Origin: an uncultured bacterium
GTDB taxonomy: Bacteria > Hydrothermota > Tepidihabitantia > Tepidihabitantales > Tepidihabitantaceae
Reading direction: 5' to 3'
Assembly (NCBI GenBank): GCA_964597845.1
Contig: CAZQZR010000003.1
Location: 3,427 to 67,426 of the forward strand
DNA: 64,000 bases
A program made the position numbers and the translations under genes. Positions 37,364 through 60,636 of the stretch are shown one piece after another. The notes beneath the pieces are model-generated. The model was not told the origin of the DNA. It saw only the letters and a list, made by a program, of their open reading frames with translations, and made no database searches. Positions within the stretch are counted from its first letter, which is position 1; each line of letters opens with the position of its first letter.

Positions 37364-37510
37364 GCCGCACCGGCCGCGAGTTGTCGACCATTCCCGTCAG
37401 CCTTCCATTGTCATCGTTCGTCGTAATCCTCTACCCCGCATTCGCGCTAGCGTCCCCTTTGCTCGGTCCTTTGCCATTTCCACTTTCCACTTTTGCCTTT
37501 GCCTGAACAC

Positions 37511-38842: not shown

Positions 38843-38876
38843 CTTTGGACTTGAGACTTTGGACTTAGGACTTAAC

Positions 38877-40792: not shown

Positions 40793-42400
40793 ATGCAACT
40801 CGTCAAGAACGCGCTCGGCCGCATGGTCCCGACCGAGGTCAACGGCAAGCCGGCAATCCCATTCCCCGGAGTAGGTAAGCACCGGCCCACCGGCCGCAAG
40901 GCCTGCCCGCAAATCCCGACCTGCCTTGATTACCCGGAAGACGGCAACAAAGTCGTGGCCGACTTGAGGACCGCGATCGAGAAGGCCGGTATCCGCAACG
41001 GCACGACTCTCTCGACCCACCACCACTTCCGCGACGGCGATACACTCCCACTCCAACTCTTCGACCTCTGCGCCGAAATGGGTCTTAAGGACTTGGTCTG
41101 GTATCCTTCGGCCGCCTTCCCGTGCCACGCGCCGATAACCAAACATCTCGACTCCGGCGTCATCCACCACATCGAAGGCAGCTTAAACGGCCCCTTGGGA
41201 GACTACTGCACCCAGGGCAAGATGCGCGGGCTGGGCGTGCTCCGCTCGCACGGCGGCCGTGCCCAGGCGATTCAGGATGGTGAAATCCACATCGACATCG
41301 CGGTTGTCGCCGCGCCGACTGCCGACCAGTTCGGCAACGCCAACGGGGTCCACGGCGACACGGCCTGCGGCGTGCTCGGCTACGCCCCCGCCGACGTAAC
41401 CTATGCCGACCGGACTATCGTAGTCACCGACAACCTGGTCCCCTTCCCGGCAATCCCCATCCAGCTCTCGGGCACGTACGTCGACATGGTCGTACAGCAG
41501 GACCATATCGGCGACCCAAAGAAAATCGTCTCGGGCACGACCCAGATTACGCGCAGCCCGGACCGGCTCTACATCGCCGAACTGACCGCGAAGTTCATCC
41601 GTGACGCCGGCATCATGCGCGACGGGTTCAGCTTCCAGGCGGGCGCCGGCGGCGTCTCGCTCGCCTTCGCCATCTACCTTGCCGACATGATGAAGCAGAA
41701 CGGGGTCAAAGCAGGCTGGCTCCACGGCGGCTCGACCCGGTACCTCGTGAAGATGCTCGAGGACGGCCTTGCGCCCGCGCTGGTTGACGGGCAGGCATTC
41801 GACGAGGACGCAATCCGCTCCATCGCGGTCAACCGCGGCCACATCTCCACCAGCCCCCTGGTCAGCTACAACTTCCACGCCAAAGGCAACTACATCAACC
41901 TGCTCGACGTGGCCGTGCTCGGCGCGACCGAAGTGGACACGAACTTCAACGCCAACGTCGTCACCCATTCGGACGGCCGCCTGCGCCACGGCATCGGCGG
42001 CTGGCAGAACTGCATGTACGCCCGCTGCACGATACTCTCGGTACCCGCCATGCGCGACCGGATGCCGGTCATCGTTGACGAAGTAACCACGCTCTGCGCC
42101 CCGGGCGAACTTGTAGACGTCATCGTCACCGAGCTCGGAATCGCCATCAACCCCAGACGACAGGACCTGCTCGATGCGGTCAAAGGCAAGGGCCTCCCGG
42201 TCCGGCCCATCGAAGACATCAAGGCCGAGGTCGAGCGCATCTGCGGCAAACCGGCCCGTCAGGCGCGCGAAAACGGGGACTGTCCCGCGCCGAGTTCGAC
42301 GCAGGCGCTCCGGGGGACTGTCCCCAGTTTTCGCCGAGTCGTAGCCGTCGTCAAATGGGTTGACGGCACGGTACTCGACTCGGTGTACCAAGTCAGTTAG
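40793..42400 (+). CDS. citF: citrate lyase alpha subunit (citrate CoA-transferase)
   Basis: 535 aa with the ATG directly after the CitE stop. CitF-like length and N-terminus (NALGRMVPTEVNGK...PF.G). C-terminal region interrupted by a palindromic-element variant. Confidence 0.8.
   Translation: MQLVKNALGRMVPTEVNGKPAIPFPGVGKHRPTGRKACPQIPTCLDYPEDGNKVVADLRTAIEKAGIRNGTTLSTHHHFRDGDTLPLQLFDLCAEMGLKDLVWYPSAAFPCHAPITKHLDSGVIHHIEGSLNGPLGDYCTQGKMRGLGVLRSHGGRAQAIQDGEIHIDIAVVAAPTADQFGNANGVHGDTACGVLGYAPADVTYADRTIVVTDNLVPFPAIPIQLSGTYVDMVVQQDHIGDPKKIVSGTTQITRSPDRLYIAELTAKFIRDAGIMRDGFSFQAGAGGVSLAFAIYLADMMKQNGVKAGWLHGGSTRYLVKMLEDGLAPALVDGQAFDEDAIRSIAVNRGHISTSPLVSYNFHAKGNYINLLDVAVLGATEVDTNFNANVVTHSDGRLRHGIGGWQNCMYARCTILSVPAMRDRMPVIVDEVTTLCAPGELVDVIVTELGIAINPRRQDLLDAVKGKGLPVRPIEDIKAEVERICGKPARQARENGDCPAPSSTQALRGTVPSFRRVVAVVKWVDGTVLDSVYQVS
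42275..42325 (+). repeat. palindromic element variant with expanded spacer, in-frame in citF
   Basis: GGGGACTGTCCC-N26-GGGGACTGTCCCC, flanked by the inverted GCGAAAAC / GTTTTCGC. Translated as GDCPAPSSTQALRGTVP. Confidence 0.8.
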
Positions 42401-42712
42401 GAGTTAGCAGTTAGCAGTTAGGAGTTGGCAGACCGCTGACTCCGTCCAGCTCAGGCACAAGCGCAAGCCCTAGGCTGGCTCAAGCGCAAGCTCAAGCACA
42501 AGCTGGCCCGCCGTTTTGGCCTTTGGCTTTTGGCTTCTCCGCCTCCACACTTCTGCGCTCTAGCCTCTAGCTTCTTCACTCTGACTTCGTCTCTTCGATG
42601 CCTTCTTGGTGGACTCCGGTTCGGACTTGGCGATCTTGGCGTCCTTGGCGGTTCAATCTCGGCTTCCGGGTCGGTTTCTGGACTCCTGCCTCCTGCCCGG
42701 TAGAATCCCAGG

Positions 42713-43480
42713 GTGAACAAAGCCTGGCGGCTTCCTATCCGTCTCGTCACGACGATAGTGCTAGTCGGCATCGGTATCCTCGTCATGAACCTGCCCGCCC
42801 TGCTCCGGCGGCAGCGGCTGCCGGCTCTGGGCCTGACCGCCGCGACCACGTTCACAGACTCGGCCAATGTACCTGCGGGAACTCCCCTGCCAGACTCGGC
42901 CGCAGTGATGGTCGCGCTCGGACGCGTGTTTGACCCGGAAATCGGCATCTCCATAGTTGATCTGGGACTCGTGAACTCCCTGCGCATCGACTCTGCCGGC
43001 ACGGTCAAGGCAACCATCATACTCACCACTCCCGAGTGCCCGTATGTGCAGCACCTTGGGGTCCAGGCAACAAAGGAGGTCATCGCGGTCCGGGGGGTAC
43101 GCCGGGTCAGAGTCCGCCTGGACCCGACGCTTCCCTGGGACCCGAGCCGTCTGACACCGGAGGCAAGGGAGCTCTACCGCAAGCGGTTTGGTGGGGGACT
43201 GCCACGGCTCCCCGGGGACTGGCACGGCTTTCCTCCGGGGAAAACCGTGCCTGTACCCAATCCCAGGCAAAACCGTGGCTGTACCACCCCAGAACCGAGA
43301 CAGAAGTTCACCACCAAGACACAAAGACACGAAGGCGGGCGCGGGCGAAGTCAGAGGTCAGATACCAGAAGTCAGAATGCAGAAGTCCGGAGTCCGGGTC
43401 TTGGCGAACTTGGCGTCCTTGGCGGTTCAATATCGGATTCGGGCACCAGCAGCAATGATGATTCTGAAACTGGTCGCTAA
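42713..43480 (+). CDS. DUF59 / Fe-S assembly (MIP18-like) domain protein whose ORF runs on through repeat DNA
   Basis: Core VFDPEIGISIVDLGLV...TTPECPYVQHLG...V.V.L...PWDPSRLTPEA. The last about 90 codons are encoded by hairpin/word repeats. The N-terminus may start later, at MVALG (42908). Confidence 0.6.
   Translation: MNKAWRLPIRLVTTIVLVGIGILVMNLPALLRRQRLPALGLTAATTFTDSANVPAGTPLPDSAAVMVALGRVFDPEIGISIVDLGLVNSLRIDSAGTVKATIILTTPECPYVQHLGVQATKEVIAVRGVRRVRVRLDPTLPWDPSRLTPEARELYRKRFGGGLPRLPGDWHGFPPGKTVPVPNPRQNRGCTTPEPRQKFTTKTQRHEGGRGRSQRSDTRSQNAEVRSPGLGELGVLGGSISDSGTSSNDDSETGR
43190..43450. repeat. composite repeat block (nested inverted repeats plus heptamer arrays)
   Basis: GCCACGG..GGCACGG..CCGTGCC..CCGTGGC nested dyads. 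accaccaagacacaaag paired with cttggcgtccttggcggt. The array gaagtca gaggtca gatacca gaagtca gaatgca gaagtcc ggagtcc lies at 43347-43395. Confidence 0.7.
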
Positions 43481-45412: not shown

Positions 45413-47728
45413 TTACCTGACGACAACCTTCCGCATCCTACCCGACCCCTGACCCCTGGCCCCTGGCCCCTCTCCTACGAAGTACACGCCGGGCCTCGCG
45501 CTTACAACCCTCCGCCCCATCGCGTCGTACACCACCGCTCCGGGCGGCAGGCTGCGGATGACCGTGGCTGCCGGCCTGAAGCTTGAGGCCGGAGGGCCGA
45601 AGCTCTCTTCGATTCCCCCGCCCGAGTCCCGTAGGACCGAAATGGTCGCCCCGCGGTAGTTCGCTACGTAGACCCGGCCTTGGTCCGGGTCCCAGACTGC
45701 GTCGCTCGGCGTGTGGTCGACCCCGACGGTCGCGAGCACGCTGTCGGTCGTTCCGTCAATGACCGTGACATCGTTGCTGTAGGAGTTCGCGCAGTAGACC
45801 CTGTCGTTCTCGGCGTCGTAACAAAGGGCAACCGGCTCCTCACCGACGGGCACCGTCGCGACGGCCGAGTCGGTCGCGCAGTCGATTACCGTCACCGTGG
45901 CGTCGCCCGAGTCCGCGCAGTAGACCTTGTTGCCGCGCGGGTTGTAGCAGAGGGCGACTGGCAGGAGTCCCACGTCCACCGAATCGATGACTTCGTTCGT
46001 TGCGCCGTCGAAGACGGTCACGTTGCGGCTCGTGTTGTTCGCGCAGTAGACCTTCTGCTCCCGGGGATTGAAGCAAAGTGCCCTGGGTCGCCTTCCCGCG
46101 GTGACATGGGTGACCTGGTTCGTCGTGCCGTCGATCACGGACACGTATTCGCAAGCATTGTTCGCGCAGTAAACGGCGTCGCTCTGGGAGTCGTAGCAGA
46201 GGGCTTCCGGCCAGTCTCCCACGGTGACCGTAGTGATGACCTGGTCCGTCGCGCCGTCGATCACGGTCACGGACCTGCCGTAGCGGTTGGCGCAATAGAC
46301 CCTGTTGTGCGGGCTCCAGCAGAGGGCGCAGGGATAGTCGCCGACCCTGATCGTGGCAAGCGCCGAGTCCGACGCGCCGTCGATCACGGTCACGGTCGAG
46401 TTCCCCGAGTCAGCGCAGTAGACCTTGTTGCCCTGCGGGTTGTAGCAGAAGGCGCAGGGCCAGACTCCGGTCGTGACGTTGGCGACGATCCGGTTCGTGG
46501 CACCGTCGATCACGCCCACGGCGCCGCTGGTCTGGTTCGCGCTGTATACCTTGTCATCTACAGGGTTGTAGCCGAGGGCACGAGGCCGGTCTCCTACCAC
46601 CACAGTGGCAACGATGCTGTCGGCCTTGCAGTCTATCACCGTCACGTCGTCTCTGACGTGATTGGGGCAGTAGACACTGCTGTTCCGGGGGTTGTAGCAC
46701 AGGGCCGGAATGCTGACGGGCATCTGCACGGCGGCAACCACTTCGTCGGTCGCCCCGTCGACGGCGACCAGGCTGCGGCCGCCGTGACCGACAAACCAGA
46801 CCCGGTTGTTGCCCGCGTCGTAGCAGAGACCCCAGCACTTCCCGTCCGGTATCGTCGCGAGGACCGAATCGGTCTCGCCGTCGATTACCGTGAGCGTCGC
46901 TTTCGGATTCGGACCGGCGCTGTTGTTCTGGCAATAGATCTTGTTATTGACCGGATTGTAGCACAGGTCGCTGGGGGCGTAGCCCGCGGCGACTGTCGCG
47001 ACGACCGCGTTCGTCGCCGCGTCTATCACGGTCACGTTCCTGCGCATGAAGTTCGCGCAGTAGATCTTGTTGCTCCTGGGGTTGTAGCAGACAACGGTGG
47101 GAAAGAGGCTGCAGGTCGCCGCGGCTACGACGACGTTCGTCTCACCGTCTATCACGACCAGGTTGTTGGTGTCCGTGTTCAGCGCGCAGTACACCTTGTT
47201 GTCATCCGGGTTGTAGCAGAGGGCCCGCGGGCTGTTGCCGACGGCGATTGACGCGATGATACAATCGGAGCTGCCGTCGATGACGGTGACGCTGTCGCTC
47301 ATCTTGTTCGCGACGTAGACCCTGTTGTCATGGCTGTTGTAGCAGAGAGCGTACGGCTGGTTCCCGGTGGCCACGGTGGTGATGGCCTGATTGGTAGCCC
47401 CATCAATCACCGTCACGTTGTCGTCGTGCATGCTCGCGGCGTAGATCTTGTTGTTCGCCGGGTTGCAGCAAAGGGACGACACGCGCTCCATGCCTCTGCC
47501 GGCGGGTATCCGGGCTATCTTCTGGTTCGTCGCGCAATCGATGGCAACCACGCAATCTCCCTCCTCGCCGCCAACGTACATGGTGTTGGTGACGGAGTTG
47601 AGCGTGATGCAGCGCGGTCCGGTCATCCCCCCGAGTGAATCCGGCAACACGATTGTCGTCTCCGGCCACTGGGCATTGACGGCTGACAGCAAGCAGCCTA
47701 CGGCTAACAGTACAGAAACGTACTTCAC
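45413..47728 (-). CDS. YVTN-family beta-propeller repeat protein with T9SS-type sorting domain
   Basis: 771 aa. About 40-residue repeats (..N.VTVIDGATN.V.ATV.VG..P.ALCYNP..NKVYCAN..). C-terminal LPPGAVVYDAMGRRVVSARPGVYFV. Confidence 0.8.
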   Translation of the reverse strand: MKYVSVLLAVGCLLSAVNAQWPETTIVLPDSLGGMTGPRCITLNSVTNTMYVGGEEGDCVVAIDCATNQKIARIPAGRGMERVSSLCCNPANNKIYAASMHDDNVTVIDGATNQAITTVATGNQPYALCYNSHDNRVYVANKMSDSVTVIDGSSDCIIASIAVGNSPRALCYNPDDNKVYCALNTDTNNLVVIDGETNVVVAAATCSLFPTVVCYNPRSNKIYCANFMRRNVTVIDAATNAVVATVAAGYAPSDLCYNPVNNKIYCQNNSAGPNPKATLTVIDGETDSVLATIPDGKCWGLCYDAGNNRVWFVGHGGRSLVAVDGATDEVVAAVQMPVSIPALCYNPRNSSVYCPNHVRDDVTVIDCKADSIVATVVVGDRPRALGYNPVDDKVYSANQTSGAVGVIDGATNRIVANVTTGVWPCAFCYNPQGNKVYCADSGNSTVTVIDGASDSALATIRVGDYPCALCWSPHNRVYCANRYGRSVTVIDGATDQVITTVTVGDWPEALCYDSQSDAVYCANNACEYVSVIDGTTNQVTHVTAGRRPRALCFNPREQKVYCANNTSRNVTVFDGATNEVIDSVDVGLLPVALCYNPRGNKVYCADSGDATVTVIDCATDSAVATVPVGEEPVALCYDAENDRVYCANSYSNDVTVIDGTTDSVLATVGVDHTPSDAVWDPDQGRVYVANYRGATISVLRDSGGGIEESFGPPASSFRPAATVIRSLPPGAVVYDAMGRRVVSARPGVYFVGEGPGARGQGSGRMRKVVVR

Positions 47729-47935
47729 GGCACCTCCTAAGTGTCTGTCACCCCGACCGAAGTGGAGGGGTCTTTCCGGAGAGATTCATCGACTCGCTCC
47801 GCTTGTTCAGAATGACTTCAGCAGCTTCATGGCATCTCCCAGACGCCAGATTATCGGCCGCCACTGCGTCTTGTCAATGGGCAAGGGACTTTGGCGTACG
47901 GGAGCAAAGCTCCCGCCTTTCCCGAGCCCGGCTTC

Positions 47936-48071: not shown

Positions 48072-48311
48072 GACCTTCTCCCGCTCAGGCGACCCGGGTT
48101 GAGTGTCGTAGACTGCGCGGTTGGTATCTTCCTCTGTCCCGCCATTCGCCTACTTCCTTCAGAAGTAGGGCCAGTTTCCAGCACCCCGGCGCACGCTTCC
48201 CGTTCGGCCCAGTTTCCTATATGTCCCCTCGAAATCGAGCCCCGAAATCCTGTAACTTCTCTATTCTCAATTCACTATTCACTCTTGCCGAAACTCCCCT
48301 ACCCCATCCCC

Positions 48312-48647
48312 TAGACTGTTTGGTGAATTGTCCGGAGAATCATCTAGAGAGCAATCCGGCAGACTATCCTCCAGACTATCCGCCAGACAATCTGGAGAAT
48401 CATCTAGACGACTATCCAGCAGACTATCTGGAAGACAATCTCCCGGAGAATGTGGAGGACAATCTGGACCGCAGTCTGGAGAACCATTCAGCCGACTATT
48501 CCGCAGATTGCCCGGAGAATCATCTGGAGAGCAATCTGGAGGATTATCCGGAGAGCAATCGGGCAGACAATCTACCCGATTATTCGGTAGATTGTCTGGT
48601 GAATTGCCTGGCGGATTATCTGGAGAACTATCCGGGGAATTCTCGTC
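48312..48647. repeat. 12-nt degenerate tandem array C (28 units, consensus NRGAYWATCYGG)
   Basis: 28 consecutive 12-mers in perfect phase with no indel (agaatcatctag agagcaatccgg cagactatcctc ...). Positions 3-4 GA, 7-8 AT and 11-12 GG are conserved. Open in three reading frames. Begins about 20 nt after the HerA terminator. Confidence 0.85.
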
Positions 48648-48666
48648 CAAAGGCCTAAACAGACAG

Positions 48667-48692
48667 CCGGGGCGCGGAATTCCGCGTCCCGG
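48667..48692 (-). terminator. palindromic hairpin after the HerA-like gene
   Basis: CCGGGGCGCGGAATTCCGCGTCCCGG, followed on the minus strand by CTGTCTGTTTAGG, 24 nt after the stop. Confidence 0.5.
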
Positions 48693-48715
48693 CATGAATC
48701 GGTAAACGGCCCGGA

Positions 48716-50362
48716 CTACAGGTCTTTTCTTCGCGCGCGCCAGCGCCTGACGATGCGGTCCACGTCCATCTCCTTGATGCCGCTCGACCACCATTTGGCG
48801 AACTCGACGTCCGAGCTCGTCGGCTTCGGGTTCGGGCAATCGATCATCACCCGTGTCGGCAGGGCCACGCAGTCACCGAGTATCAGCGCTTCGCCGGTCC
48901 GGAGCGACGGCAGCATGTCCATCAAACCTGAAAGCGAATCCGGCACCAGCTTTCGGACGTACGCCTGGTCCTCCGGGTTCGTGAGCCGCATGGCGATGAA
49001 GCTGTTACACTGGGAGAGCACGGTTTCGGACAGTTCCTTGGGCCGCTGGCTGACGATGATTGTGCCGATGCCGTACTTCCGGCCCTCCTTGGTAAGCCGT
49101 TCGATCGCGGTCTTCGCTGCCTGGAGCTTATAGTCGTTGCGGTTAGGCACATAGTTGTGTGCCTCTTCGAATACCAGCAGTATCGGGAAACGGTCGCGCT
49201 CCGGATTCCAGAGGTTGAACTCAAACACGATGCGTGAAACGACCGCGGCCACCACGCCGACCGCCTCGGTGGGAACGCCGCTCAGGTCGACAACCGCCAT
49301 CCTGTTCCCCGTGTCGATCGAAAGGAACTCCCTGAGTAGCCGCACGAGGCTGTCGTTGTTCGTATAAGTGGAGGGCGAGAACATGAACCTGAACCGCGGG
49401 TCGCTCACTTTGCTGTCGAGCCGCAGCAGGAACCGGTCGAATTCACCGTACAACGGCCCCGGCTGCATGTCGCCGTCGTTGTTCGGCACCATCTGGATGT
49501 TCCAGTTCCTTATCTGGCCAAGCATGTCCTCAATCTGAAAGAAGATCGGAGAATCCGCGGTCACCCGCTCGCCCTTGCGCAATCGGTCACTCCCGACCGT
49601 GCCTTCCCGCGCCCGCACCAGCGCATCACGCAGAATCGTAATCTGGTTCTTGGCCGAGAACTCGTTCATGTCTATAGTCAGGTCCTGGAACTCGTCGAAG
49701 CTGAGCAGCCAGTACGGCAACTCGACCTTGTCCGCCTCAATCAGCGTGACCTTTTCCGGGAACGCCGACGCATACTCGCCGTGCAGGTCAAGTACGATGA
49801 TGTGAGCGTCAGGGTACTTGCGAATCGCCTCCTGCAGAATCGAGACGACCGTGCAGGATTTGCCGCAACCCGTCGTGCCGACCACCGCGATGTGCTGCCC
49901 GAAGAAACGGTCGACGTTGATGAAGGCGCGCTGGTCCTCGGCCTGCGACGGCCGGCCGAACGAGAAGTCGTACTCATTGTACTCGGAGAAGATGCTCTTC
50001 AGTTCGTCGGGGCCCACCATTCTCACGATTTGGCCAACGGTGGGGTAAACGGCCACTCCGCGGATGAACCCGCCGTTGGCCCCCATCGTACCGATGAGTA
50101 TGCAGTCCGCTATCTTCCGCCCGGCGGTCGGACAAGCCGGGTCAAGAGCCGCTGACGACAGGTGGCCTGCGTTCATGCTGATGGACGAAACGATGCCGAT
50201 GACACTGCGGTCTCGGACCGCGATCTTGATGTGCGAGCCGGGCTGCCCCGGGAAGTAGTCCAGGGCCAGCGGAACCGTCGTGTCTACGTGCAACTCTACG
50301 AGCGCCCGCTCGCCGTTCACCTCGACGACGAAGCCGATGTCAATATCACTATTTGCTGTCAT
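48716..50362 (-). CDS. HerA-like (DUF87) P-loop ATPase
   Basis: 548 aa. N-terminal barrel-like IGFVVEVNGERALVEL. Walker A VVGTTGCGKS, Walker B ILLVFEEAH, GIGTIIVSQRP. AAGGAG RBS. Confidence 0.85.
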   Translation of the reverse strand: MTANSDIDIGFVVEVNGERALVELHVDTTVPLALDYFPGQPGSHIKIAVRDRSVIGIVSSISMNAGHLSSAALDPACPTAGRKIADCILIGTMGANGGFIRGVAVYPTVGQIVRMVGPDELKSIFSEYNEYDFSFGRPSQAEDQRAFINVDRFFGQHIAVVGTTGCGKSCTVVSILQEAIRKYPDAHIIVLDLHGEYASAFPEKVTLIEADKVELPYWLLSFDEFQDLTIDMNEFSAKNQITILRDALVRAREGTVGSDRLRKGERVTADSPIFFQIEDMLGQIRNWNIQMVPNNDGDMQPGPLYGEFDRFLLRLDSKVSDPRFRFMFSPSTYTNNDSLVRLLREFLSIDTGNRMAVVDLSGVPTEAVGVVAAVVSRIVFEFNLWNPERDRFPILLVFEEAHNYVPNRNDYKLQAAKTAIERLTKEGRKYGIGTIIVSQRPKELSETVLSQCNSFIAMRLTNPEDQAYVRKLVPDSLSGLMDMLPSLRTGEALILGDCVALPTRVMIDCPNPKPTSSDVEFAKWWSSGIKEMDVDRIVRRWRARRKDL

Positions 50363-50498
50363 GTTTGATTACTCCTTAGCGGGCGGCCGCCCGGCCGGAG
50401 GACTCTCTTCGGGTTGTACATTATGCGGAAAGAGCCGAACCTGCGGTCAAGTCCGCTCTGAATGGGAAGCACGCGACGTAACCAGTCAATCGACAGTA

Positions 50499-50527
50499 AC
50501 AATAGCCGAGTTTGGCGGCGGCGTCAA
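50499..50527 (-). promoter_or_regulatory. sigma70-like promoter of the HerA-like gene
   Basis: Minus strand TTGACG-N17-TATTGT about 140 nt upstream of the ATG. Confidence 0.4.
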
Positions 50528-50563
50528 CTGGCGGGATATTCCCGAGAACCGTGATAGGAACTT

Positions 50564-50698
50564 ACCACCAAGACACGAAGAGGAAGGGATGAAGCCGGAA
50601 AGGCTGAAGCCGGAAAAACCTGAGTTCGGGTTCGTCCTTCATCCCTCATCCTTCATCCTTTCCGCGACATGCTTGGCGGTCTTGGCGTCCTTGGCGGT
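50564..50698. repeat. long nested hairpin made of word repeats (A-B...B'-A')
   Basis: accaccaagacacgaag / aggaagggatgaag ... cttcatccctcatccttcatcc / cttggcggtcttggcgtccttggcggt. The outer and inner arms are each imperfect reverse complements. Confidence 0.7.
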
Positions 50699-50726
50699 TC
50701 TATATCGGTTTCCGGGATATTGTCGG

Positions 50727-50754
50727 TTGACTGAGCCGCGAAATCGTTTAACAT
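50727..50754 (+). promoter_or_regulatory. sigma70-like promoter of the radical SAM gene
   Basis: TTGACT-N16-TAACAT about 120 nt upstream of the ATG at 50874. Confidence 0.4.
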
Positions 50755-50873
50755 CTGACGGTGATACTGAAGTCAGAAAGAACCGACGTGCGTGGACACG
50801 CAGCCAAGGTGCTCCCCGCGCCGGCCGCTGCTCGCTCCGCCCAACTCCCTATCGAGAGGGCACGGTAGCACTC

Positions 50874-51578
50874 ATGCGCATCGTCGGGTTCACTGAAACC
50901 TCGCTACTCGACTGGCACGGCCGGATCGCCGCCGTCCTGTGGATCAGCGACTGCAACTTCTGTTGTCCGTTCTGTCATAACCACCAGGTCGCCGACGACG
51001 ACCCGAGCCTGCCGGAAGTACCGTGGGACGAAATCGCCCGGACGCTCGACCGCAAACGCGACTGGTATGACGGCGTGGTCCTGACCGGCGGCGAGCCGCT
51101 GATGCACCCCGAGGTCTTCGAGTTGTGCCGGCGCATCAAGGACATCGGCCAGCCGGTAAAGGTGGACACGAACGGCTCATTCCCCTACGCGCTCAAGGAC
51201 CTGGTTGACCGGCAGCTCGTGCAAGCCGTTGCCATGGATGTGAAGGCACCGCTCAGCGCACGATACGCCAGAGCCGCCGGCCGGCCGGTTGACCTCGCGC
51301 CGCTGCGCCGGACCATCAAGCTCCTAATCGAATCCGGCATCGAGCACGAGTTCCGCAGCACGCTCGTGCCCGGTCTCATCAACCCGGATGACATCGTGGC
51401 CATCGGTGAAGCGGTCAAAGGCGCCCAGGCTGTCGCTCTGCAGGCATACGTGCCCGAACGGGCAAGAGTCAAGGGATTCGGCGGAGGAAAGTCTTACTCG
51501 CAGTCTGAAGTTGACGCCATGGCCGAAGTCTTGAGACGGTCGGTCAAGGAAGTCAGGATTCGCGGCAGCTTCGCCTGA
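50874..51578 (+). CDS. radical SAM activating enzyme (anaerobic ribonucleotide reductase activase NrdG-like family)
   Basis: 234 aa. SLLDWHG..A.VLWISDCNFCCPFCHN (CX3CX2C), VVLTGGEPLMH, VKVDTNG. Start trimmed from 50280. Confidence 0.8.
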   Translation: MRIVGFTETSLLDWHGRIAAVLWISDCNFCCPFCHNHQVADDDPSLPEVPWDEIARTLDRKRDWYDGVVLTGGEPLMHPEVFELCRRIKDIGQPVKVDTNGSFPYALKDLVDRQLVQAVAMDVKAPLSARYARAAGRPVDLAPLRRTIKLLIESGIEHEFRSTLVPGLINPDDIVAIGEAVKGAQAVALQAYVPERARVKGFGGGKSYSQSEVDAMAEVLRRSVKEVRIRGSFA

Positions 51579-52225: not shown

Positions 52226-53615
52226 TGTGGACGGCTTTGGAGTGGATGGCTTCGGCGGCCTCGAACAGCAGCTCGCTCATCGTCGGGTGGGCGTGCACGA
52301 CCCGGCCGATGTCGGCCGCGGTAAGGCCCAGTTCGACCGCGACCGCTGCCTCGGCAATCAGGACGTCGGCGCCGGGCGCGGCCAGTTGCACTCCCAGCAC
52401 TTTGTCGGTCTGGGCATCGACTACCATCTTGCACAGGCCGTCGCTCCGGCCCAGGGTCAGAGACCGCCCCACCGCCGACAGCGGTACTCGACTCACCTTA
52501 ACCTTGAGGTCCTGGTTCGCGGCCTCGGCTTCGTTGAGGCCGACCGACGCTACCTCAGGGTCGGTGTACACACAGGACGGGACCGCCTTGAAACGCCACT
52601 GCCGGCCGCCGGCAAGGGACTCTGCCAGCGCGATTCCATCGGCCATTGCCCGGTGCGCCAGCAGGAGGCCCGGCTTCACGTCACCGATGGCATAGACGTG
52701 GCCGGCGCTGGTCCGGTACTTCTGGTCGACCGCAATGAAACCCCGTTCATCAACCCGCACCCCGGCCTTGTCCAGTTCCAGGCCGGTCAAGAGCGGCTTG
52801 CGCCCGACCGCCACCAGCACCGCGTCCGCCTCGACCGAGGACTCGGTTTCGCCGTCCGCATACCTGACCCGCAGCCCCGGCTCGCGGTCCAGCCCCGACA
52901 CCTTGACCCCGAGATGGAACTCGACGCCCTCGCTCCCGATCGCCTTCCTGAGCGCGGCGCTGACCTCGAGGTCGAACCCGGGCAGCAATTGCGGCATCAG
53001 CTCGAGTACGGTCACACTCGCGCCCAGCCGGCGGAAGATGGTCGCGAACTCAAGACCGATTGCGCCGGCGCCAATGACGACGACCCGGGTCGGAAGCCGG
53101 GTCAGGTTCAGTGCGCCGGTCGAATCGAGCACGGACTGGCCGTCCGGCTCGAAGCCGGGCAGCACGACGGGCTCTGAGCCGGTCGCGATGACAATGTTGT
53201 CCGCGCCCATCTCGACCTCGGTTCCGTCCGGCTGCGCAACCATGACCCGCCGCGCGTCGAGGAAACGCGCCGTGCCCTTGACCACCTCGACGCCGTTCGA
53301 CCGGAGCAGGAACTCGACCCCGCGCACCAGCCGGTCGACAACCCGCGTCTTCCAGCCGTACAGCGCCTGGATGTCAATCTGCGGCTGCCCGAACACGACA
53401 CCCATGCGCCGCGCTTCGGCGGCGTTGCGCACCGTGGCTGCGGCGTGCAGCAGGGACTTCACCGGGATGCAGCCCCAGTTCAGGCAGATGCCGCCGACGC
53501 GCTCCCGCTCGATGACGACGACTTTGCGGCCAAGCTGCGCCAGCCTGATTGCGGCGACGTACCCGGCCGGCCCGGCGCCGACAATAAGGACGTCGGCCTT
53601 ATGTACGGTACTCAT
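52212..53615 (-). CDS. lpdA: dihydrolipoyl dehydrogenase
   Basis: VLIVGAGPAGYVAAIRLAQLG, redox-active GGICLNWGCIPVKSL, C-terminal HAHPTMSE. Start trimmed to MSTVHKADV; the upstream codons are ccaattg repeat DNA. Confidence 0.9.
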   Translation of the reverse strand: MSTVHKADVLIVGAGPAGYVAAIRLAQLGRKVVVIERERVGGICLNWGCIPVKSLLHAAATVRNAAEARRMGVVFGQPQIDIQALYGWKTRVVDRLVRGVEFLLRSNGVEVVKGTARFLDARRVMVAQPDGTEVEMGADNIVIATGSEPVVLPGFEPDGQSVLDSTGALNLTRLPTRVVVIGAGAIGLEFATIFRRLGASVTVLELMPQLLPGFDLEVSAALRKAIGSEGVEFHLGVKVSGLDREPGLRVRYADGETESSVEADAVLVAVGRKPLLTGLELDKAGVRVDERGFIAVDQKYRTSAGHVYAIGDVKPGLLLAHRAMADGIALAESLAGGRQWRFKAVPSCVYTDPEVASVGLNEAEAANQDLKVKVSRVPLSAVGRSLTLGRSDGLCKMVVDAQTDKVLGVQLAAPGADVLIAEAAVAVELGLTAADIGRVVHAHPTMSELLFEAAEAIHSKAVHIVNR

Positions 53616-53624
53616 CGGGAATGA

Positions 53625-53740
53625 CCAATTGCCAATTGCCAATTCCCAACGAATCCCCCAAGACCGAATGACTCGGCCGTTCGTGCTCCATCATTTCCTG
53701 ATTCGTTGGTCATTAGGAATTGGGGCTTGGGAATTGCCGG
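53625..53740. repeat. long imperfect hairpin of heptamer words (ccaattg family) between lpd and the acyl-CoA dehydrogenase gene
   Basis: ccaattgccaattgccaattcccaacgaatc ... gattcgttggtcattaggaattggggcttgggaattgccgg. Confidence 0.65.
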
Positions 53741-53747
53741 TCTTTCC

Positions 53748-54899: not shown

Positions 54900-54916
54900 A
54901 CTCTGCTCCTTTGCGA

Positions 54917-55012
54917 ACTAGTTAGCAGTTAGCAGTGAAGAGTTAGTGAGGAAACCAACTCCTGACTCCTAACCCTTGACTCTTAACTCCTAACTCACTG
55001 TCCTACTGCTGC
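54917..55012. repeat. word-repeat inverted pair (tagcagt / taggagt family)
   Basis: ctagttagcagttagcagtgaagagttagtgagg ... ctcctgactcctaacccttgactcttaactcctaactcactgtcctactgctg. The same word family occurs at 9745-9815 and 42395-42430. Confidence 0.6.
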
Positions 55013-57968: not shown

Positions 57969-60122
57969 ATGAAGCAACTGCTCCTTGAAATCGGTACTGA
58001 AGAAATCCCGGCCTCGTTCCTTAAGCCGGCGGCGCTCGACCTTGAGCGCCGGGTTCGGGCCGCGATTTCGGAAAATGACATACCGGCTGGCGTGTCCGAG
58101 CTCTTCTCGACCCCGCGCCGGCTCGCGCTCCGCCTAAGCGACGTCGCCGACGGCAGGCCTGCCCAGGTCATTGAACTCCAGGGCCCGCCCCGCAAGGCCG
58201 CGTTCGACGCCCAGGACAACCCCACCAGGACCGCGGTCGGATTCAGCGCGGCCCACGGCAAGACCCCGGCGGACCTGTACTTCAAACAGACTCCGCGCGG
58301 CGAATACGTCTTCCTGAAGAAACAGACCGACCCGTTGCCGACCACCAAAGTGCTGCAGGAAAGGCTGCCCGGAATCATCCCCACCCTGCCATTCCCCAAG
58401 AACATGCGCTGGGACGCAAGCGGCCTCAGGTTCGCCCGACCTATCCGCTGGCTCGTCTGCCTGTTTGGCCCGGATGCGGTCGAGTTCACACTCGGCGAAC
58501 TCAAGTCCGGCGCCGACTCCCGCGGGCTCCGCAACTCGAAGCCTTCTCAGTTTCGCGTCCCGAGCCCGGCCGAGTACGAAACCGCGCTAAAGGCGCACGG
58601 CGTCATCGCGTCGCACGACGCCCGGCGCAAGACCATCGCGGCGGACTTGCTTCGCCTGGCCGGCACGGTCAGCGGCCAGCCGGTCGAGGACGACGAACTA
58701 TTGGACGAGACCACGGACATCACCGAATCCCCGGAACTGCTCCTCTGCTCATTCAACCCGGACTACCTCTCCCTGCCCGGCGAAGTACTGGTAACCGCGC
58801 TCAAGAAGCACCAGCGCTGCTTCTCCGTTCAGGGGGACTGTCCCCGCACGGGGACTGTCCCCAAAGCCGCGCCTGCCCTCCTCCCCCGTTTTGTCGCCGT
58901 CACCAATACGCCCGGCTGCGACCACGCAGTGGTGACCGGCTGGTACGAGAGAGCCGCCGAGTCGCGACTGCGCGACGCCCGTTTCTTCGTCGAGTCCGAC
59001 CTGAAACGCGGCCTCGAAGCGCTGGTCGATGAGGAAAAGCAAGTCACGTGGATCGAAGGCATGGGCACCTACTTCGACAAAACCCAGCGCCTGCGCGAAC
59101 TCTGCCGCCACCTGACAGCGCAGACCCCGAACACCGACGCGATCGCGCTGGACCGGGCCGCCCTGCTCTGCAAGGCCGACCTGCTCACAGAGATGGTACG
59201 CGAGAAGGAGTTTACCTCGCTGCAGGGCCGCATCGGTGGCATCTACGCGCGTACCATGGGTGAACCGCCGTCCGTTGCCGACGCGATTGCCGAGCACTAC
59301 CTGCCCCGTTTCACCGGCGACAAGCTGCCGGCGACCCGTGACGGCGCGCTGCTCAGCATTGCCGACAAGCTCGACAACATCGTCGCCACCTTCCTGAGTG
59401 GCGAAATTCCCACCGGCTCCGAAGACCCGTTCGCCCTGCGCCGCCAGGCAACCGGGCTCCTCACCATCGTGCTCAAACAGAACCTGCCGATTGATATCGG
59501 TGAACTGGTCGCGGCCGCGCTCCGGCTCCTCCCCGCAGCGAAGAACGAATACGCGTCCCAGATTCCCGGCCTGTTCCGCGAACGGCTCAATGCCCTTCTC
59601 GCCGAACAGGGAATCCGGTACGACATCGCGGCCGCGGTCATGGAGACCAGTTGGCAGCAGCCGGCCCAGGCTCTGGTCCGGGCCAATGCGCTGGCCGCGT
59701 TCCGCGACGACCCCGAGTTCCTAAGGCTCGTAGTCGGTCAGAAGCGCGTGGCCAACATCCTGAAGGGACAAACCGCCTGGGGACTGTCCCCGCATGGGGA
59801 CTGTCAGGGGACTGTCCCCGAACGGGGACTGTCCCCAAAACTCAAAGAGCGACTTCTCACCGAACCCACCGAGCAGCAACTCTGGACCGAAGCGCAGAAG
59901 GTCGAGCCCGACCTTAACCAAAGCCTTGCCGCGCACGACTACCGGCGCGCCTTCAAGTTACTTCTCGGCCTCCGTCCGACGATAGACAAGTTCTTTGAGG
60001 ACATACTGGTGATGGCCAAGGATGAGAAGGTGCGAGAGAACCGCCTTAGCCTGCTCGGGTACGTCCGCTCCCTATTCGGCAGAGTCGCGGACCTGTCGAA
60101 GATAGTCATTGAAGGAGAATAG
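57969..60122 (+). CDS. glyS: glycine-tRNA ligase beta subunit
   Basis: MKQLLLEIGTEEIPASF..., FSTPRRLA, typical GlyS N-terminus and length apart from two palindromic-element inserts. No glyQ is adjacent. Confidence 0.9.
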   Translation: MKQLLLEIGTEEIPASFLKPAALDLERRVRAAISENDIPAGVSELFSTPRRLALRLSDVADGRPAQVIELQGPPRKAAFDAQDNPTRTAVGFSAAHGKTPADLYFKQTPRGEYVFLKKQTDPLPTTKVLQERLPGIIPTLPFPKNMRWDASGLRFARPIRWLVCLFGPDAVEFTLGELKSGADSRGLRNSKPSQFRVPSPAEYETALKAHGVIASHDARRKTIAADLLRLAGTVSGQPVEDDELLDETTDITESPELLLCSFNPDYLSLPGEVLVTALKKHQRCFSVQGDCPRTGTVPKAAPALLPRFVAVTNTPGCDHAVVTGWYERAAESRLRDARFFVESDLKRGLEALVDEEKQVTWIEGMGTYFDKTQRLRELCRHLTAQTPNTDAIALDRAALLCKADLLTEMVREKEFTSLQGRIGGIYARTMGEPPSVADAIAEHYLPRFTGDKLPATRDGALLSIADKLDNIVATFLSGEIPTGSEDPFALRRQATGLLTIVLKQNLPIDIGELVAAALRLLPAAKNEYASQIPGLFRERLNALLAEQGIRYDIAAAVMETSWQQPAQALVRANALAAFRDDPEFLRLVVGQKRVANILKGQTAWGLSPHGDCQGTVPERGLSPKLKERLLTEPTEQQLWTEAQKVEPDLNQSLAAHDYRRAFKLLLGLRPTIDKFFEDILVMAKDEKVRENRLSLLGYVRSLFGRVADLSKIVIEGE
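58833..58862 (+). repeat. double-palindrome element, in-frame in glyS
   Basis: GGGGACTGTCCCC-GCAC-GGGGACTGTCCCC, translated as GDCPRTGTVP(K). Same orientation and frame relative to the host gene as the three sorting-domain copies. Confidence 0.9.
59779..59836 (+). repeat. tandem/partial copies of the palindromic element, in-frame in glyS
   Basis: GGGGACTGTCCCC-gcat-GGGGACTGTC-a-GGGGACTGTCCCC-gaac-GGGGACTGTCCCC, translated as GLSPHGDCQGTVPERGLSP. Confidence 0.9.
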
Positions 60123-60636
60123 TGGTCTAGTGGTCAAGTGGGTCAGTGGTCGAGTGACCGACAGACGCGATTCGCCGCTCCGCCTCCGGACTTCTGCAAT
60201 CTGCATTCTCCTGCTCCTTTCCACTTGCGCTCCCACCCCTCGCCCCCCGTCCCTTACACCTCGCCCCGAACTCCTGACCACCGAACTGCGCATCAAGGAA
60301 GCTCGCGTCTTCGCCGAAGTCGTCAGCAAGCCGGAAGACCGGAACCTCGGCCTTATGTTCCGGCGCAGCCTCGCACCGGATTCGGGCATGCTCTTCGTGT
60401 TTGACACCGACGACTATCAGCGTTTCTGGATGAAGAACACACTCATTCCATTGAGCATCGCCTTTGTCACCCGCGACTCGCTCATCACCGACATCCTCGA
60501 AATGGCCCCGCTCGACACGACCACGCCCTATCTCTCGTCGAAGGCCGTGCGCTACGCGATTGAGATGAACTCGGGCTGGTTCCAGACCCACGGTCTGAAA
60601 CCCGGTGACACCGTCAGAGGTCTCCCACCCCACTAG
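60109..60636 (+). CDS. DUF192 family protein (probable lipoprotein)
   Basis: LGLMFRRSLAPDSGMLFVFD....FWMKNTLIPLSIAF.......IEMNSGWF. N-terminal LLLLSTC. The start is uncertain; the TTG at 60109 overlaps the glyS end and a word repeat. Confidence 0.65.
   Translation: MKENSGLVVKWVSGRVTDRRDSPLRLRTSAICILLLLSTCAPTPRPPSLTPRPELLTTELRIKEARVFAEVVSKPEDRNLGLMFRRSLAPDSGMLFVFDTDDYQRFWMKNTLIPLSIAFVTRDSLITDILEMAPLDTTTPYLSSKAVRYAIEMNSGWFQTHGLKPGDTVRGLPPH

Follow-up and report, generated by a model that had tools for sequence, protein, structure and literature searches.

A 176-bp MITE with arms of short-word arrays, and the repeats around it, in a 64-kb stretch of WOR-3 DNA

The word arrays and hairpin at positions 50541-50716 of the 64,000-nucleotide stretch analysed here (the window) are a member of a MITE family, with inverted termini, a 5-bp target-site duplication and an empty orthologous site in close relatives. 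The structure reaches beyond 50564-50698, where the preliminary description of this DNA had placed a nested hairpin. As one of many word repeats at gene ends, the element represents a new family within a known kind of selfish DNA rather than a new type of system; the candidate phylum WOR-3, which is known only from metagenomes, would gain a transposon family by it. For the window as a whole, the explanation we think probable is that this MITE, with arms made of words, stands among other arrays that are a mixture of three kinds.

Structure, copies and orthologous sites of the 176-bp element

The focal element folds at -72.5 kcal/mol (z -4.6; z -3.1/-3.5 against shuffles for 50533-50714), and its parts are listed in Table 1. 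The imperfect terminal inverted repeats, recorded as CCCYAGAACCGAGATAGG / CCTATCTCGGTTCTRGGG, are 19 nt long and complementary at 14 of 19 positions in the focal copy and at 13 of 19 in the family consensus. Both arms are arrays of 8-9-nt words. The string CACCACCAAGACAC is found at 12011, 43309 and 50563, and the right-arm 19-mer has the same orientation in all five window copies (CTTGGCGTCCTTGGCGGTT: five exact occurrences versus 0.02 expected, every one on the + strand). This one-way orientation is unexpected for a DDE transposon, yet it is not significant because only about four of the sites are independent. The size lies within that of MITEs (under about 300-500 bp), and there is no coding frame of its own, the sole reading frame across the focal copy being a spurious 5' extension of the radical-SAM ORF.

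Table 1. Parts of the focal element and other arrays, hairpins and family pieces in the window.
Position	Strand	Feature	Remarks
50541-50716	+	Focal MITE, 176 bp (CCCGAGAACCG...CGGTTTCCGGG), one long imperfect palindrome	Absent from orthologous spacer of L005 and L007
50536-50540	.	Target-site duplication ATATT, left copy	Identical 5-mer directly outside both termini
50717-50721	.	Target-site duplication ATATT, right copy	
50541-50559	+	Left terminal inverted repeat CCCGAGAACCGTGATAGGA	14/19 complementary to right terminus; kept in 7 copies
50698-50716	+	Right terminal inverted repeat TTCTATATCGGTTTCCGGG	
50564-50583	+	Left arm, CACCAAGA/CACGAAGA-type 8-nt words (ACCACCAAGACACGAAGAGG)	Also at 12011 and 43309; in all family copies
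50584-50663	+	Apical cargo, second palindrome of 7-nt words (GGATGAA... / TTCATCC x4)	TRF 50582-50616, 50631-50660
50672-50699	+	Right arm (CTTGGCGNN)x3, end GGTT	Exact 19-mer 5x in window
50522-50527	-	-35-like hexamer TTGACG, herA-side promoter	TTGACG-17-TATTGT; 9 nt left of duplication; consensus match only
50727-50732	+	-35-like hexamer TTGACT, radical-SAM-side promoter	TTGACT-16-TAACAT; 5 nt right of duplication; consensus match only
43287-43444	+	Second complete MITE copy, 158 bp; one-sided (GAAGTCA)n apex array 43347-43395	
42626-42670	+	Solo right family end (CTTGGCG arrays + GGTTCAATCTCGGCTTCCGGG)	Closes 280-bp run of other word arrays from CitF stop
17841-18011	+	2.5 tandem copies of 72-nt unit (CTTCGCCATTTCCCC words + CTTGGCGTCCTTGGCGGTT)	TRF
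11945-12163	+	Composite nested palindrome; outer arms GGCAAAGGGGCAAGTGGCAATGGCGAAG / CTTCGCCATTTTCCCCC...TTTCCAC words around MITE-left-half-like core	Fold z -3.5/-3.1
9431-9535	+	GAATAGT/ACTATTC hairpin, 3 nt past stop codon, then GCTGTGTCTTGCGGTT matching a MITE arm	
9744-9813	+	TAGGAGT / CTGCTAC hairpin, overlaps stop of gene 9809-11932 (-)	
39414-39488	+	CACGAAAG / CTTCGTG hairpin after aconitase small-subunit stop	Fold z -5.5 (39410-39492)
53616-53740	+	CCAATTG / GGAATTG hairpin between ACAD stop and Lpd start	40-nt arms, 75% complementary
54916-54997	+	TAGCAGT / ACTCCTA hairpin overlapping LMWPc stop	Fold z -3.6/-3.9 (54912-55000)
42393-42431	+	Solitary (CAGTTAG/GAGTTAG)x5 array	First TAG = CitF stop codon
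60117-60160	+	Solitary (TAGTGGTC)x4-5 array	First TAG = glyS stop codon; fills glyS-DUF192 spacer
38843-38876	+	(GACTTNG)x4.7 array	Whole 34-nt spacer between two aconitase subunit genes
105-146	+	Solitary (ACCACTNG)x3 array, 11 nt from stop of gene 157-1620 (-)	Reverse complement of 60117 word
7309-7358	+	Solitary (CCGTRNN)x7 array, no hairpin	Fold z -0.8/-1.3

Seven complete copies of 113-176 bp were recovered, with termini and arms conserved. Together with an insert in the relative L006, these give eight sites, and at five of them (four complete copies and the L006 insert) a perfect 5-bp duplication lies directly outside the termini: ATATT, ACCGC, TACGG and ACCCA, and ACTGC in L006. One such match has a chance of about 1/1000. 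The duplication is absent in two of the eight (L137 and L143) and ambiguous in one (43287). The apex is variable: four copies are compact (L137, L140, L141 and L143, which lack the apical cargo with its significant reverse-complement partner) and three carry three different word modules. Compared by eye, 9431-9535 is near-identical to the reverse complement of cargo plus arm of copy L148 (1535-1682), the GAATAGT module of which corresponds to the free-standing hairpin 9431-9510 and the adjacent arm piece. Most copies have hairpin potential at z -3 to -5. The family is dispersed even within 64 kb, where two copies are complete and a solo end, tandem partial copies and one variant were also found.

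Comparison with relatives demonstrated filled and empty orthologous sites. In L005, the closest relative (93% nucleotide identity), both flanks of the focal element are 92-94% identical to the window and the blastn HSPs break at 50538/50713. The orthologous site is empty and uninterrupted in L005 and in a second relative, L007, each having a single 5-mer at that point (CTAAC and CCTGC, respectively), while in a third relative, L006, that point is occupied by another member of the family, flanked by a duplication of its own and with termini that match the family (three mismatches to the right-end consensus). ATATT of the window differs from CTAAC of the L005 empty site at three of five positions, which exceeds the prediction from 7% divergence, so that imprecise excision in L005, or a different history, is possible.

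We find it hardly credible that the element is an artefact of metagenome assembly or binning. The window is known only from metagenome assemblies, but the same sequence is found in four independent assemblies from different samples, three of them 99.9% identical across the focal element and gap-free and the fourth (97.7% identical) with the element unchanged, and related elements occur in isolate genomes of other phyla.

Insertion would have required a transposase encoded elsewhere, most likely of DDE type, that binds the imperfect termini of about 19 nt and perhaps the sub-terminal word arrays as well. The element would have entered a 5-bp staggered cut, repair of which would yield the ATATT duplication. 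It has word arms next to the termini (CACCAAGA-type on the left, CTTGGCGNN on the right) and a variable apex, here the GGATGAA/TTCATCC palindrome. The focal copy lies between two divergent predicted promoters, herA-like and radical-SAM, and not at a gene end; it appears to have inserted into the 19 bp that separate the back-to-back -35 boxes of these genes, and both promoters would thereby stay intact. No transposase domain was detected in the window ORFs tested, and neither a transposase gene nor an autonomous element with family termini turned up in the window or among related loci totalling about 1 Mb, no locus having a left-right pair of termini 0.8-3 kb apart. An all-against-all comparison of 2395 ORFs of the related loci for a recurrent ORF near related elements returned only ABC ATPases and similar common families.

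Word arrays and hairpins across the window

Counting as arrays all runs of at least three copies at 80% identity or more, we found 26 period-7 arrays versus 0.2 expected from 20 dinucleotide shuffles of the window, and nine period-8 arrays versus 0.4 expected from such shuffles. Half of the arrays lie in the non-coding 15% of the window. When intergenic DNA alone was analysed and each spacer shuffled separately, the counts were 13 versus 0.03 for period 7 (maximum 1 in 100 shuffles) and 5 versus 0.09 for period 8; intergenic lag-7 autocorrelation was 0.298 versus 0.260 shuffled, with echoes at lags 14 and 21. The preliminary description had staked its period-7 claim on a comparison with composition-shuffled intergenic DNA, and the excess persisted in it. 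All the examples named there were found, each at the position given or a few bases off, and its account of word arrays of short period, word families that recur, long imperfect hairpins and a nested modular plan was borne out. Head to tail, over-represented against composition and mainly intergenic, the arrays share these properties with heptamer simple-sequence repeats.

About 13 arrays lie inside open reading frames, outside spacers, and encode linkers, a signal peptide and a membrane-protein loop. The tandem units at 17841-18011 are in frame inside a membrane-protein ORF (16970-18643, - strand), where EGERGNGEVRSGRETAKDAK repeats separate hydrophobic segments, and the second complete MITE copy lies within a 3' extension of the FeS_assembly_P frame, the Pfam domain of which ends at aa 134 of ORF 42713-43480. 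Stop-free arrays of this kind inflate frames and create false gene fusions or extensions when such genomes are annotated automatically.

A significant reverse-complement partner within 130 nt was found for 8 of 32 merged arrays, with some six to seven true hairpins, so the view that arrays are frequently paired holds for about a quarter and fails for most. The five stems proposed earlier fold better than shuffles (z about -2 to -6.3; for example 9429-9512 at z -4.9/-6.3 and 53612-53745 at about -2), and several other named arrays do not: 4540-4700, 7300-7365, 37440-37510 and 43300-43445 fold no better than their shuffles.

Spacer content was also compared across relatives, as had been proposed, and the words were found to differ or vanish from one relative to another. 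At the spacer orthologous to 53616-53740, L005 and L006 carry other words and L007 carries none, while the hairpin at 54916-54997 is shared by L007 but missing from L005 and L006 (98 nt in the window versus 35 nt in L005). Of the five large differences that separate the window from L005, four consist of word arrays, hairpins or the MITE. Both arrays and hairpins turn over quickly among relatives, which would account for much of the indel variation seen between close relatives in WOR-3. Such differences appear only between species-level relatives; among the four assemblies of the same population no gaps indicating unit-number variation were seen.

This last result bears on the reading that nothing moves, the arrays being local simple-sequence repeats made by polymerase slippage and the palindromes products of template switching. 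A heptamer excess is reported for many bacteria, and slippage has been put forward for that in intergenic DNA of Nostoc and Xanthomonas (PMC4692102, citing Mrazek 2007); the stop codon is in phase with the first array unit at four genes, and one orthologous spacer has different words in different relatives. As a general account we nevertheless hold it to be quite improbable, given the clean boundaries with inverted termini and 5-bp duplications, the same composite sequence at unlinked loci and on other contigs, a stop phase that is not exclusive to the first unit (8:1:5) and the constant copy number in the four population assemblies.

Very improbable, in our judgement, is that the arrays are binding sites for a nucleoid protein, a regulator or a repeat-reading protein, with the focal element a regulatory insert. 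Within a word some positions are fixed and others vary (CTTGGCGNN), a feature shared with the GGGANTN repeats of Xanthomonas (PMC4692102); five sites carry the identical 19-mer, and the focal element sits between divergent promoters. However, the window holds dozens of word families unrelated to one another, and as many proteins would be required; relatives with the same gene pair lack the focal insert, and no candidate protein was identified.

Under the MITE explanation, one part of the other window arrays would derive from this element and similar palindromes, as additional copies, halves or decayed remnants. A second part would be free-standing heptamer and octamer arrays, probably grown by slipped-strand mispairing and surviving mainly behind stop codons, and a third would be arrays absorbed into reading frames. 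This explanation gives no account of the period of 7-9 nt or of the solitary arrays that start at a gene's own stop codon. A footprint model, in which the 5-bp duplication plus two terminal bases would give period 7, was rejected: the termini would leave CC/GG behind, and most words do not contain it.

Stop codons and a possible role in RNA

Of the 19 non-coding arrays, nine to ten are found no more than 20 nt from a stop codon versus 0.98 expected (P<0.0005), about ten times more than chance, and two lie near start codons versus 1.1 expected. The impression that gene boundaries are filled with such words is incomplete, given the many coding arrays and the position of the focal copy. Judged by eye, the sense strand of stop-adjacent arrays is C-poor in 10 of 12 cases, and a stop triplet is present in 7 of 11 words; repeated with period 7, such a triplet closes each of the three frames.

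These features are what one would look for if hairpins and arrays were selected RNA elements (U-tract-independent terminators, REP-like stabilisers of 3' ends, or all-frame stops), kept at gene ends because the host lacks canonical intrinsic terminators, with mobility only spreading them. Canonical sites, a GC-rich hairpin followed by a U-tract, are not enriched in the window (14 versus 13.8 expected) and none coincides with the word hairpins; six hairpins have strong fold z-scores; and REP hairpins of E. coli stabilise 3' ends without terminating (PMC12642595). We regard this reading as unlikely all the same. The focal copy is upstream of both flanking promoters and is therefore probably not part of either mRNA, only a quarter of the arrays form hairpins, and orthologous genes in close relatives do without them. 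By crude gene calls, the elements occur in convergent, tandem and divergent spacers alike. Nor is there a consistent G-U strand asymmetry: the two strands of the focal copy are equal in energy, and the opposite strand is better by 3-7 kcal/mol in three of seven copies and worse in one. Adjacency to stops can also arise from insertions harming least there.

No Rfam 15 model reached its gathering score in the whole window or E<=1 in 50350-50880, and ARAGORN detected no tRNA or tmRNA in the window. Birth of arrays in place from a stop codon was considered as well and dropped: the stop that closes the open frame was the first member of the periodic stop series in 8 cases, the second in 1 and the third in 5, a spread not clearly different from uniform. 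Arrays at stop codons, in a stretch of DNA where canonical terminators are not enriched, make the old question of what heptamer repeats do in bacteria accessible to 3'-end mapping in every lineage that carries them.

Related elements in other genomes and comparison with known repeats

Bacterial MITEs such as Correia/NEMIS of Neisseria, RUP and BOX of Streptococcus pneumoniae and the Porphyromonas gingivalis minisatellite MITE (PMC4596501) are short, non-coding elements with inverted termini, a fixed-length duplication, many dispersed copies, filled and empty sites, a modular interior with tandem repeats, and intergenic copies that are sometimes in frame in genes, all of which the window family shares. 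It differs in that its arms are themselves 8-9-nt word arrays and its apex accepts further palindromic modules, in having no known partner insertion sequence, and, as far as checked, in matching no string in the literature and no model in Rfam. Its duplication is of 5 bp, whereas that of Correia and RUP elements is TA. The likeness to pneumococcal BOX elements suggested earlier pointed the right way, to a MITE, as the inverted termini, 5-bp duplication and empty orthologous site indicate; it is architectural only, consisting in terminal modules that pair and a middle module that is repeated.

The literature searched contained no paper with the arm or terminus strings and none that combines WOR-3 with MITE, which agrees with the earlier impression of an undescribed family as far as the strings go; for the phenomenon there are precedents in Nostoc, Xanthomonas and Beggiatoaceae. 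The heptamer repeats known as STRR in Calothrix and Anabaena, GGGGAYT in Nostoc, GGGAATC in Xanthomonas and TAACTGA in Beggiatoaceae (PMC4692102, PMC4679880, the latter citing the Calothrix STRR) likewise have period 7 and 2-10 or more units, are strongly over-represented and mostly intergenic, and vary in length and sequence between close relatives, as here. Intergenic heptamers are in excess in Nostoc and Xanthomonas, sometimes as inverted pairs between genes (PMC4692102), and TAACTGA repeats occur in Beggiatoaceae, Cyanobacteria and Bacteroidetes (PMC4679880). Those systems have one to three dominant words, in contrast to dozens of families in 64 kb, and TAACTGA repeats lie just upstream of start codons, whereas the window arrays abut stop codons. 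The window organism is a member of WOR-3 and, unlike STRR-type repeats, part of its arrays belongs to a transposon with inverted termini. The small dispersed repeats (SDR) of Nostoc punctiforme (Elhai et al. 2008, cited in PMC3116915) are reportedly tiny modules of 21-27 nt, nested in hairpins, present or absent at orthologous sites and encoding no protein; the window modules are set apart by that description, being 60-180 nt long and not cyanobacterial.

REP/REPIN sequences, which are mobilised by RAYT (PMC3116915, PMC3733652), are extragenic palindromes, often at gene 3' ends, present in hundreds of copies and thought to stabilise mRNA 3' ends. They are 20-40 nt long, carry a GTAG or CGTC tag and make no target duplication, while the focal family is longer, lacks the tag, ends in CCCG.../...CGGG and has a 5-bp duplication.

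Nested palindromes in Pirellulales, for example in Pirellula sp. PB1.3.31 and Lacipirellula limnantheis I41, likewise have arms built of the right-arm word (CTTGGCGNN)n, and the same right arm occurs in at least 119 loci of other genomes. We found no description of these palindromes in the literature searched. They have in common with the window family the exact 19-mer arm followed by GGTTCAAT, CACGAMG-type inner words, and A-B...B'-A' nesting around a variable inner hairpin, at 150-230 bp; the word family of the 39414-39488 hairpin is also present in the Pirellula elements L124 and L058. In Pirellulales, however, the CTTGGCG array makes up both arms and is near-terminal, whereas in the WOR-3 family it is confined to the right arm, with about 17 more bases to the terminus. 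The Pirellulales elements examined have no consistent target duplication, little complementarity outside the arms and no extended termini, and may therefore move differently.

The shared 19-mer and nesting reflect either transfer of a small non-coding element between phyla or a constraint shared by the arms. A bolder reading, which we consider unlikely, is that WOR-3, Pirellulales and perhaps other groups hold a cross-phylum population of tiny mobile modules that insert preferentially into hairpin apices and directly behind stops by an undescribed mechanism targeting hairpins or single strands. A host lineage lacking canonical intrinsic terminators would have adopted them as U-tract-independent 3' signals and all-frame stops, and the 176-bp MITE would be just the largest shell in a nested system. 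A heptamer vocabulary common to several phyla was also considered (10 shared words versus 2.0 expected) and the claim was dropped, since nearly all of the excess traced to a single unclassified MAG of 62% GC (L079/L034), probably a relative; with cyanobacteria, one word was shared versus 0.55 expected.

Among single matches to the 19-mer, many fall within long ORFs, as in Sorangium, and could be chance matches in coding sequence (...TAKDAK...). By context, again from crude gene calls, the cross-phylum elements were in 6 convergent, 6 tandem and 5 divergent spacers.

The focal insertion and its family

The window has a G+C content of ~62%, a negative GC skew along its whole length and a gene content of ordinary bacterial housekeeping genes, and the same DNA is contained in four metagenome assemblies. 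The preliminary description had flagged a nested A-B...B'-A' structure at 50564-50698, which sits in a 502-bp divergent spacer. We compared this region with three syntenic relatives retrieved via glyS: L005, the closest, at 92-94% nucleotide identity, and L006 and L007 at about 77-83%. The alignment of L005 with the window is unbroken save for window positions 50539-50712, which have no counterpart in L005. The empty site is uninterrupted both in L005 (GGCGGG-CTAAC-GTCGATTGAC) and in L007 (GCCGGG-CCTGC-CGTTGATTGAC). The insert, CCCGAGAACCG...CGGTTTCCGGG, has 19-nt termini that are complementary at 14 of 19 positions and is flanked on both sides by ATATT. At precisely this point L006 carries another insert, which is longer, has related termini and is flanked by its own repeat, ACTGC.

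Searching metagenome contigs for the element's right end matched 13 loci; with the window included, these yielded seven complete copies, 113-176 bp long, in which termini and arms are conserved. Three metagenome copies have perfect 5-bp flanking repeats (ACCGC, TACGG and ACCCA); with the focal and L006 insertions, a 5-bp duplication is present in five of eight cases, absent from two and ambiguous in one. MITEs are defined by being small, by having inverted termini and a fixed-length duplication, by occurring in several copies and by orthologous sites that may be filled or empty; the focal family shows all of these traits. In its behaviour and in these tests the focal element conforms to a bacterial MITE, which is its best explanation. 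Its family is new, the element strings being without match in the literature searched. No partner insertion sequence was seen in the small part of any genome that was searched; movement would depend on a DDE-type transposase acting in trans. A REP/REPIN identity was ruled out by the absent tag, the wrong size and the presence of a duplication, and the element is neither an intrinsic terminator nor a known RNA family.

Copies are built in the order left terminus (CCCYAGAACCGAGATAGGA), left arm of ACCAC(A/C)AAG(G)CAC(A/G)AAG words, apex, right arm of (CTTGGCGNN)2-3 ending in GGTTCAATATCGG, and right terminus. The arms are inexact complements in which the left arm often has A, not C, opposite a right-arm G; these positions read as A-C mismatches in the strand as written and as G-U pairs in its complement, and the two strands differ little, and not consistently, in folding energy. 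What varies between copies is the apex, short in compact copies (GGTCCGGAC...) and holding different word modules in others (see table). The nested plan of the flagged stretch is explained in this way, as a palindromic module inside the apex of another palindrome. Judged by eye, the apex module of the L148 copy is a close match to the reverse complement of the free-standing hairpin at 9431-9510, and the match continues into the adjacent arm (...GACACAGC); from this resemblance, some, at least, of the "simple" gene-end hairpins are related to composite elements or are what remains of them. For the whole, the best explanation is a new family of MITEs carrying nested word-repeat modules, within a lineage where heptamer repeats abound.

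The focal element and its duplication fill a 19-bp gap between two back-to-back -35-like hexamers and, being confined to this gap, leave both predicted promoters whole. The independent L006 insertion at the same point may reflect target choice. Equally, the gap could be the sole harmless place in a compact control region; we estimate that two insertions would share a position within the gap by chance roughly 1 in 15 times. Elsewhere in the window, CCCCGAAAT(T/C) motifs, some in tandem, recur close to CTTGACA-like -35 hexamers upstream of genes, and this may be a regulatory motif.

Features and their coordinates (window positions unless a relative is named)
Feature	Coordinates	Strand	Detail
HerA-like ATPase gene	48716-50362	-	one flank of focal spacer
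Radical-SAM activase gene	start 50865	+	other flank of focal spacer
Promoter-like match TTGACG-17-TATTGT	50527-50499	-	promoter scan, consensus match only
Promoter-like match TTGACT-16-TAACAT	50727-50754	+	promoter scan, consensus match only
Focal copy	50541-50716		apex a palindrome of GGATGAA/TTCATCC words
Second copy	43287-43444		apex a one-sided (GAAGTCA)n array
L148 copy			apex a GAATAGT/ACTATTC hairpin
DUF192 signal-peptide arrays, window	60154-60280		CTGCAAT/CTGCATT words
DUF192 signal-peptide arrays, L005	12213-12330		CCGCCAAGG array for positively charged start
DUF192 signal-peptide arrays, L007	12105-12163		CTGCAAT/CTGCATT words
CCCCGAAAT(T/C) motifs	5053-5070, 20045-20080, 22788-22806, 48227-48252		some tandem (CCCCGAAATTAC x2)
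In-frame heptamer linkers	157-345, 24487-24518, 25867-25972, 45440-45476		KPQATSL, AVSGRRS, GEGPGARGQGSG
Units on perfect palindrome GGGGACTGTCCCC	59773-59836, 28810-28847		first in glyS 3' coding region
Dispersed element CTGTCAYYCCGACCGARG...GGAGGRRTCTYTC	4420-4490, 47738-47810; L006 about 2660-2730
65-nt repeat GATAGAAAGRCAACGCCGCCCG..GGCGG..CGTTGTCCGGTTCCGGTCGGGCGG	4224-4290, 7395-7460		GC-rich hairpin without U-tract, behind gene ends
Period 12/24/36 arrays (GGCAAAGCCTCT; GACTCTGACCGA)	18981-19278, 19708-19855		first partly self-complementary
Run of 12-nt units (GGAGAATCATCT / GCCAGACAATCT ...)	48221-48705		arrays 48334-48627
Multi-pass membrane protein gene	16970-18643	-	557 aa, no Pfam match
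ACP and HpcH_HpaI domains in one frame	39401-40792		arrays 39767-39801 (linker), 40188-40220 (aldolase domain region)
Segment without word repeats	61026-61157		132 nt, missing from L005; 2-nt overlap at junction

Word arrays in spacers and at stop codons

Tandem Repeats Finder reports all of the tandem degenerate 7-9-nt word arrays named in the preliminary description, which proved largely correct: the feature is real and statistically strong. Counting arrays of at least 3 units and at least 80% identity over the whole window, we observed 26 of period 7 and 9 of period 8, where dinucleotide-shuffled versions of the window gave 0.2 and 0.4, respectively; periods 4 and 5 were at chance level in the same count. 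The period-7 signal also withstood comparison with intergenic DNA whose spacers were shuffled individually (13 versus 0.03, maximum 1 in 100 shuffles), and intergenic lag-7 autocorrelation was 0.298 versus 0.260 shuffled, with echoes at lags 14 and 21. The recurrence of words at separate loci was borne out by CTTGGCGTCCTTGGCGGTT, with 5 exact occurrences in the window versus 0.02 expected, and by CACCACCAAGACAC, found at 12011, 43309 and 50563. Inverted pairing holds for the five named stems, whose folding beats shuffles (z -2 to -6), but not for arrays at large: a significant reverse-complement partner lies within 130 nt of only 8 of the 32 merged arrays, and several named arrays fold no better than shuffles. 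Non-coding DNA makes up 15% of the window yet contains half of the arrays; the picture of arrays as gene-boundary filling has to be narrowed, with about a dozen falling within open reading frames.

A stop codon lies no more than 20 nt from 9-10 of the 19 mostly non-coding arrays, versus 0.98 expected from random placement in non-coding DNA (P<0.0005); near start codons the same test gave 2 versus 1.1 expected. In four genes (CitF, glyS, LMWPc and 9809-11932) the first array unit is in register with the natural TAG. Canonical hairpin-plus-U-tract terminators are not enriched in the window (14 versus 13.8); sigma-70-like promoters are (13 versus 3.4). The stop-adjacent arrays and hairpins might serve transcripts, for instance through REP-like 3'-end protection (PMC12642595) or by providing stops in all three frames, or might merely persist where they are least harmful.

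Arrays and hairpins turn over between relatives. Of the five large differences that separate the window from L005, four consist of the MITE, a hairpin or arrays. Three relatives have three different word hairpins in the Lpd-ACAD spacer and a fourth has nothing there, and the ACAD-LMWPc hairpin is common to the window and L007 and missing from L005 and L006. Between assemblies of the population the arrays showed no variation. Within the same 22-kb syntenic block, 2-6 heptamer arrays are present in relatives down to 65% GlyS identity and none in two more distant WOR-3 genomes (60% and 53%); candidate division WOR-3 is also the label carried by close homologues of the window's glycyl-tRNA synthetase beta chain. 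Growth in unit number would come from slippage, a hypothesis cited for heptamer repeats in PMC4692102, and elements would be lost via hairpin-mediated deletion. In their period, their bias towards intergenic DNA and their variability, the arrays agree with heptamer repeats known from Nostoc, Calothrix and Xanthomonas (PMC4692102) and with TAACTGA repeats (PMC4679880); they depart from these in number of word families, host and stop-codon preference.

Other repeats accompany the arrays. The dispersed CTGTCAYYCCGACCGARG...GGAGGRRTCTYTC element also makes up part of what is inserted at the focal site in L006. A gene 3' end is duplicated at positions 1-100 and 4376-4530, and in the second copy this ~60-nt element is inserted directly behind the stop codon. 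The period 12/24/36 arrays occupy a 1.8-kb gene-poor gap.

Arrays within reading frames

In C25 peptidases, the linkers adjoining a C-terminal sorting-type domain, of KPQA(S/T)SL and AVSGRRS type, are encoded by heptamer arrays. Such linkers flank a conserved C-terminal segment of ~30 residues (...LDITGRKV.DL.PGANDV.RL.PGVYFV) found in secreted peptidases and a beta-propeller protein. Six secreted peptidase genes are clustered at 24267-33379 (two C25, one C1-like, two M14, plus a C25 at 1958-4096); the C-terminal domains of several are of the FlgD_ig or a similar type, suggestive of cargo for a type IX-like secretion route. The GGGGACTGTCCCC motif encodes ...GDCPRTGTVP... in a C25 peptidase tail, and its glyS copy is extra relative to L005 (indels of 14, 10, 9 and 18 nt) and read in frame.

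A membrane-protein loop contains a 72-nt unit of element arms in 2.5 in-frame repeats; several in-frame GERGNGE/ETAKDAK inserts in this protein derive from element arms, and because the frame stays open the gene may still function. Word arrays encode parts of the signal peptide of a DUF192 lipoprotein, and even between close relatives such as the window and L005 these arrays are completely different. Stop-free arrays extend reading frames, for example that of FeS_assembly_P, which runs through the second MITE copy. The frame joining citrate-lyase acyl-carrier and beta-subunit domains may be a genuine fusion, or stop-free arrays may have produced it as an effect of annotation. The long run of 12-nt units, open in several frames, is 69% identical to L006 14737-15226, where a 152-aa gene with no Pfam domain is called; it could encode a four-residue-repeat protein or be non-coding.

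The building plan in Pirellulales

Species-representative genomes contain the right arm's exact 19-mer at no fewer than 119 loci. Among the matches listed, many are single 19-mers in long ORFs of GC-rich genomes, which may be coding coincidences; also among them are 22 Pirellulales loci with the 19-mer on both strands 80-230 nt apart, where it makes both arms of a long palindrome. These arms enclose CACGACG/CGTCGTG words, then GGTTCAAT, and also a variable inner hairpin made of other words; CACGAAG words and the GGTTCAAT motif also occur in the window (39414-39488 and right ends). The same building plan is present in a second phylum. A consistent duplication was not found around the Pirellulales elements, so we do not claim the same mode of movement as for the focal MITE. 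That the heptamer vocabulary is generally common across phyla was rejected: once an unclassified genome, probably a relative, was left out, the test failed. As a kind, the element is already known; the building plan that it shares with Pirellulales and the association with stop codons are worth following. Two complete paired (CTTGGCGNN)n palindromes, at 5463-5689 and 8509-8703, were also seen in L129 (IMG/VR contig 3300010051_000521), a contig classified as viral that could be a planctomycete prophage region or a misclassified fragment.
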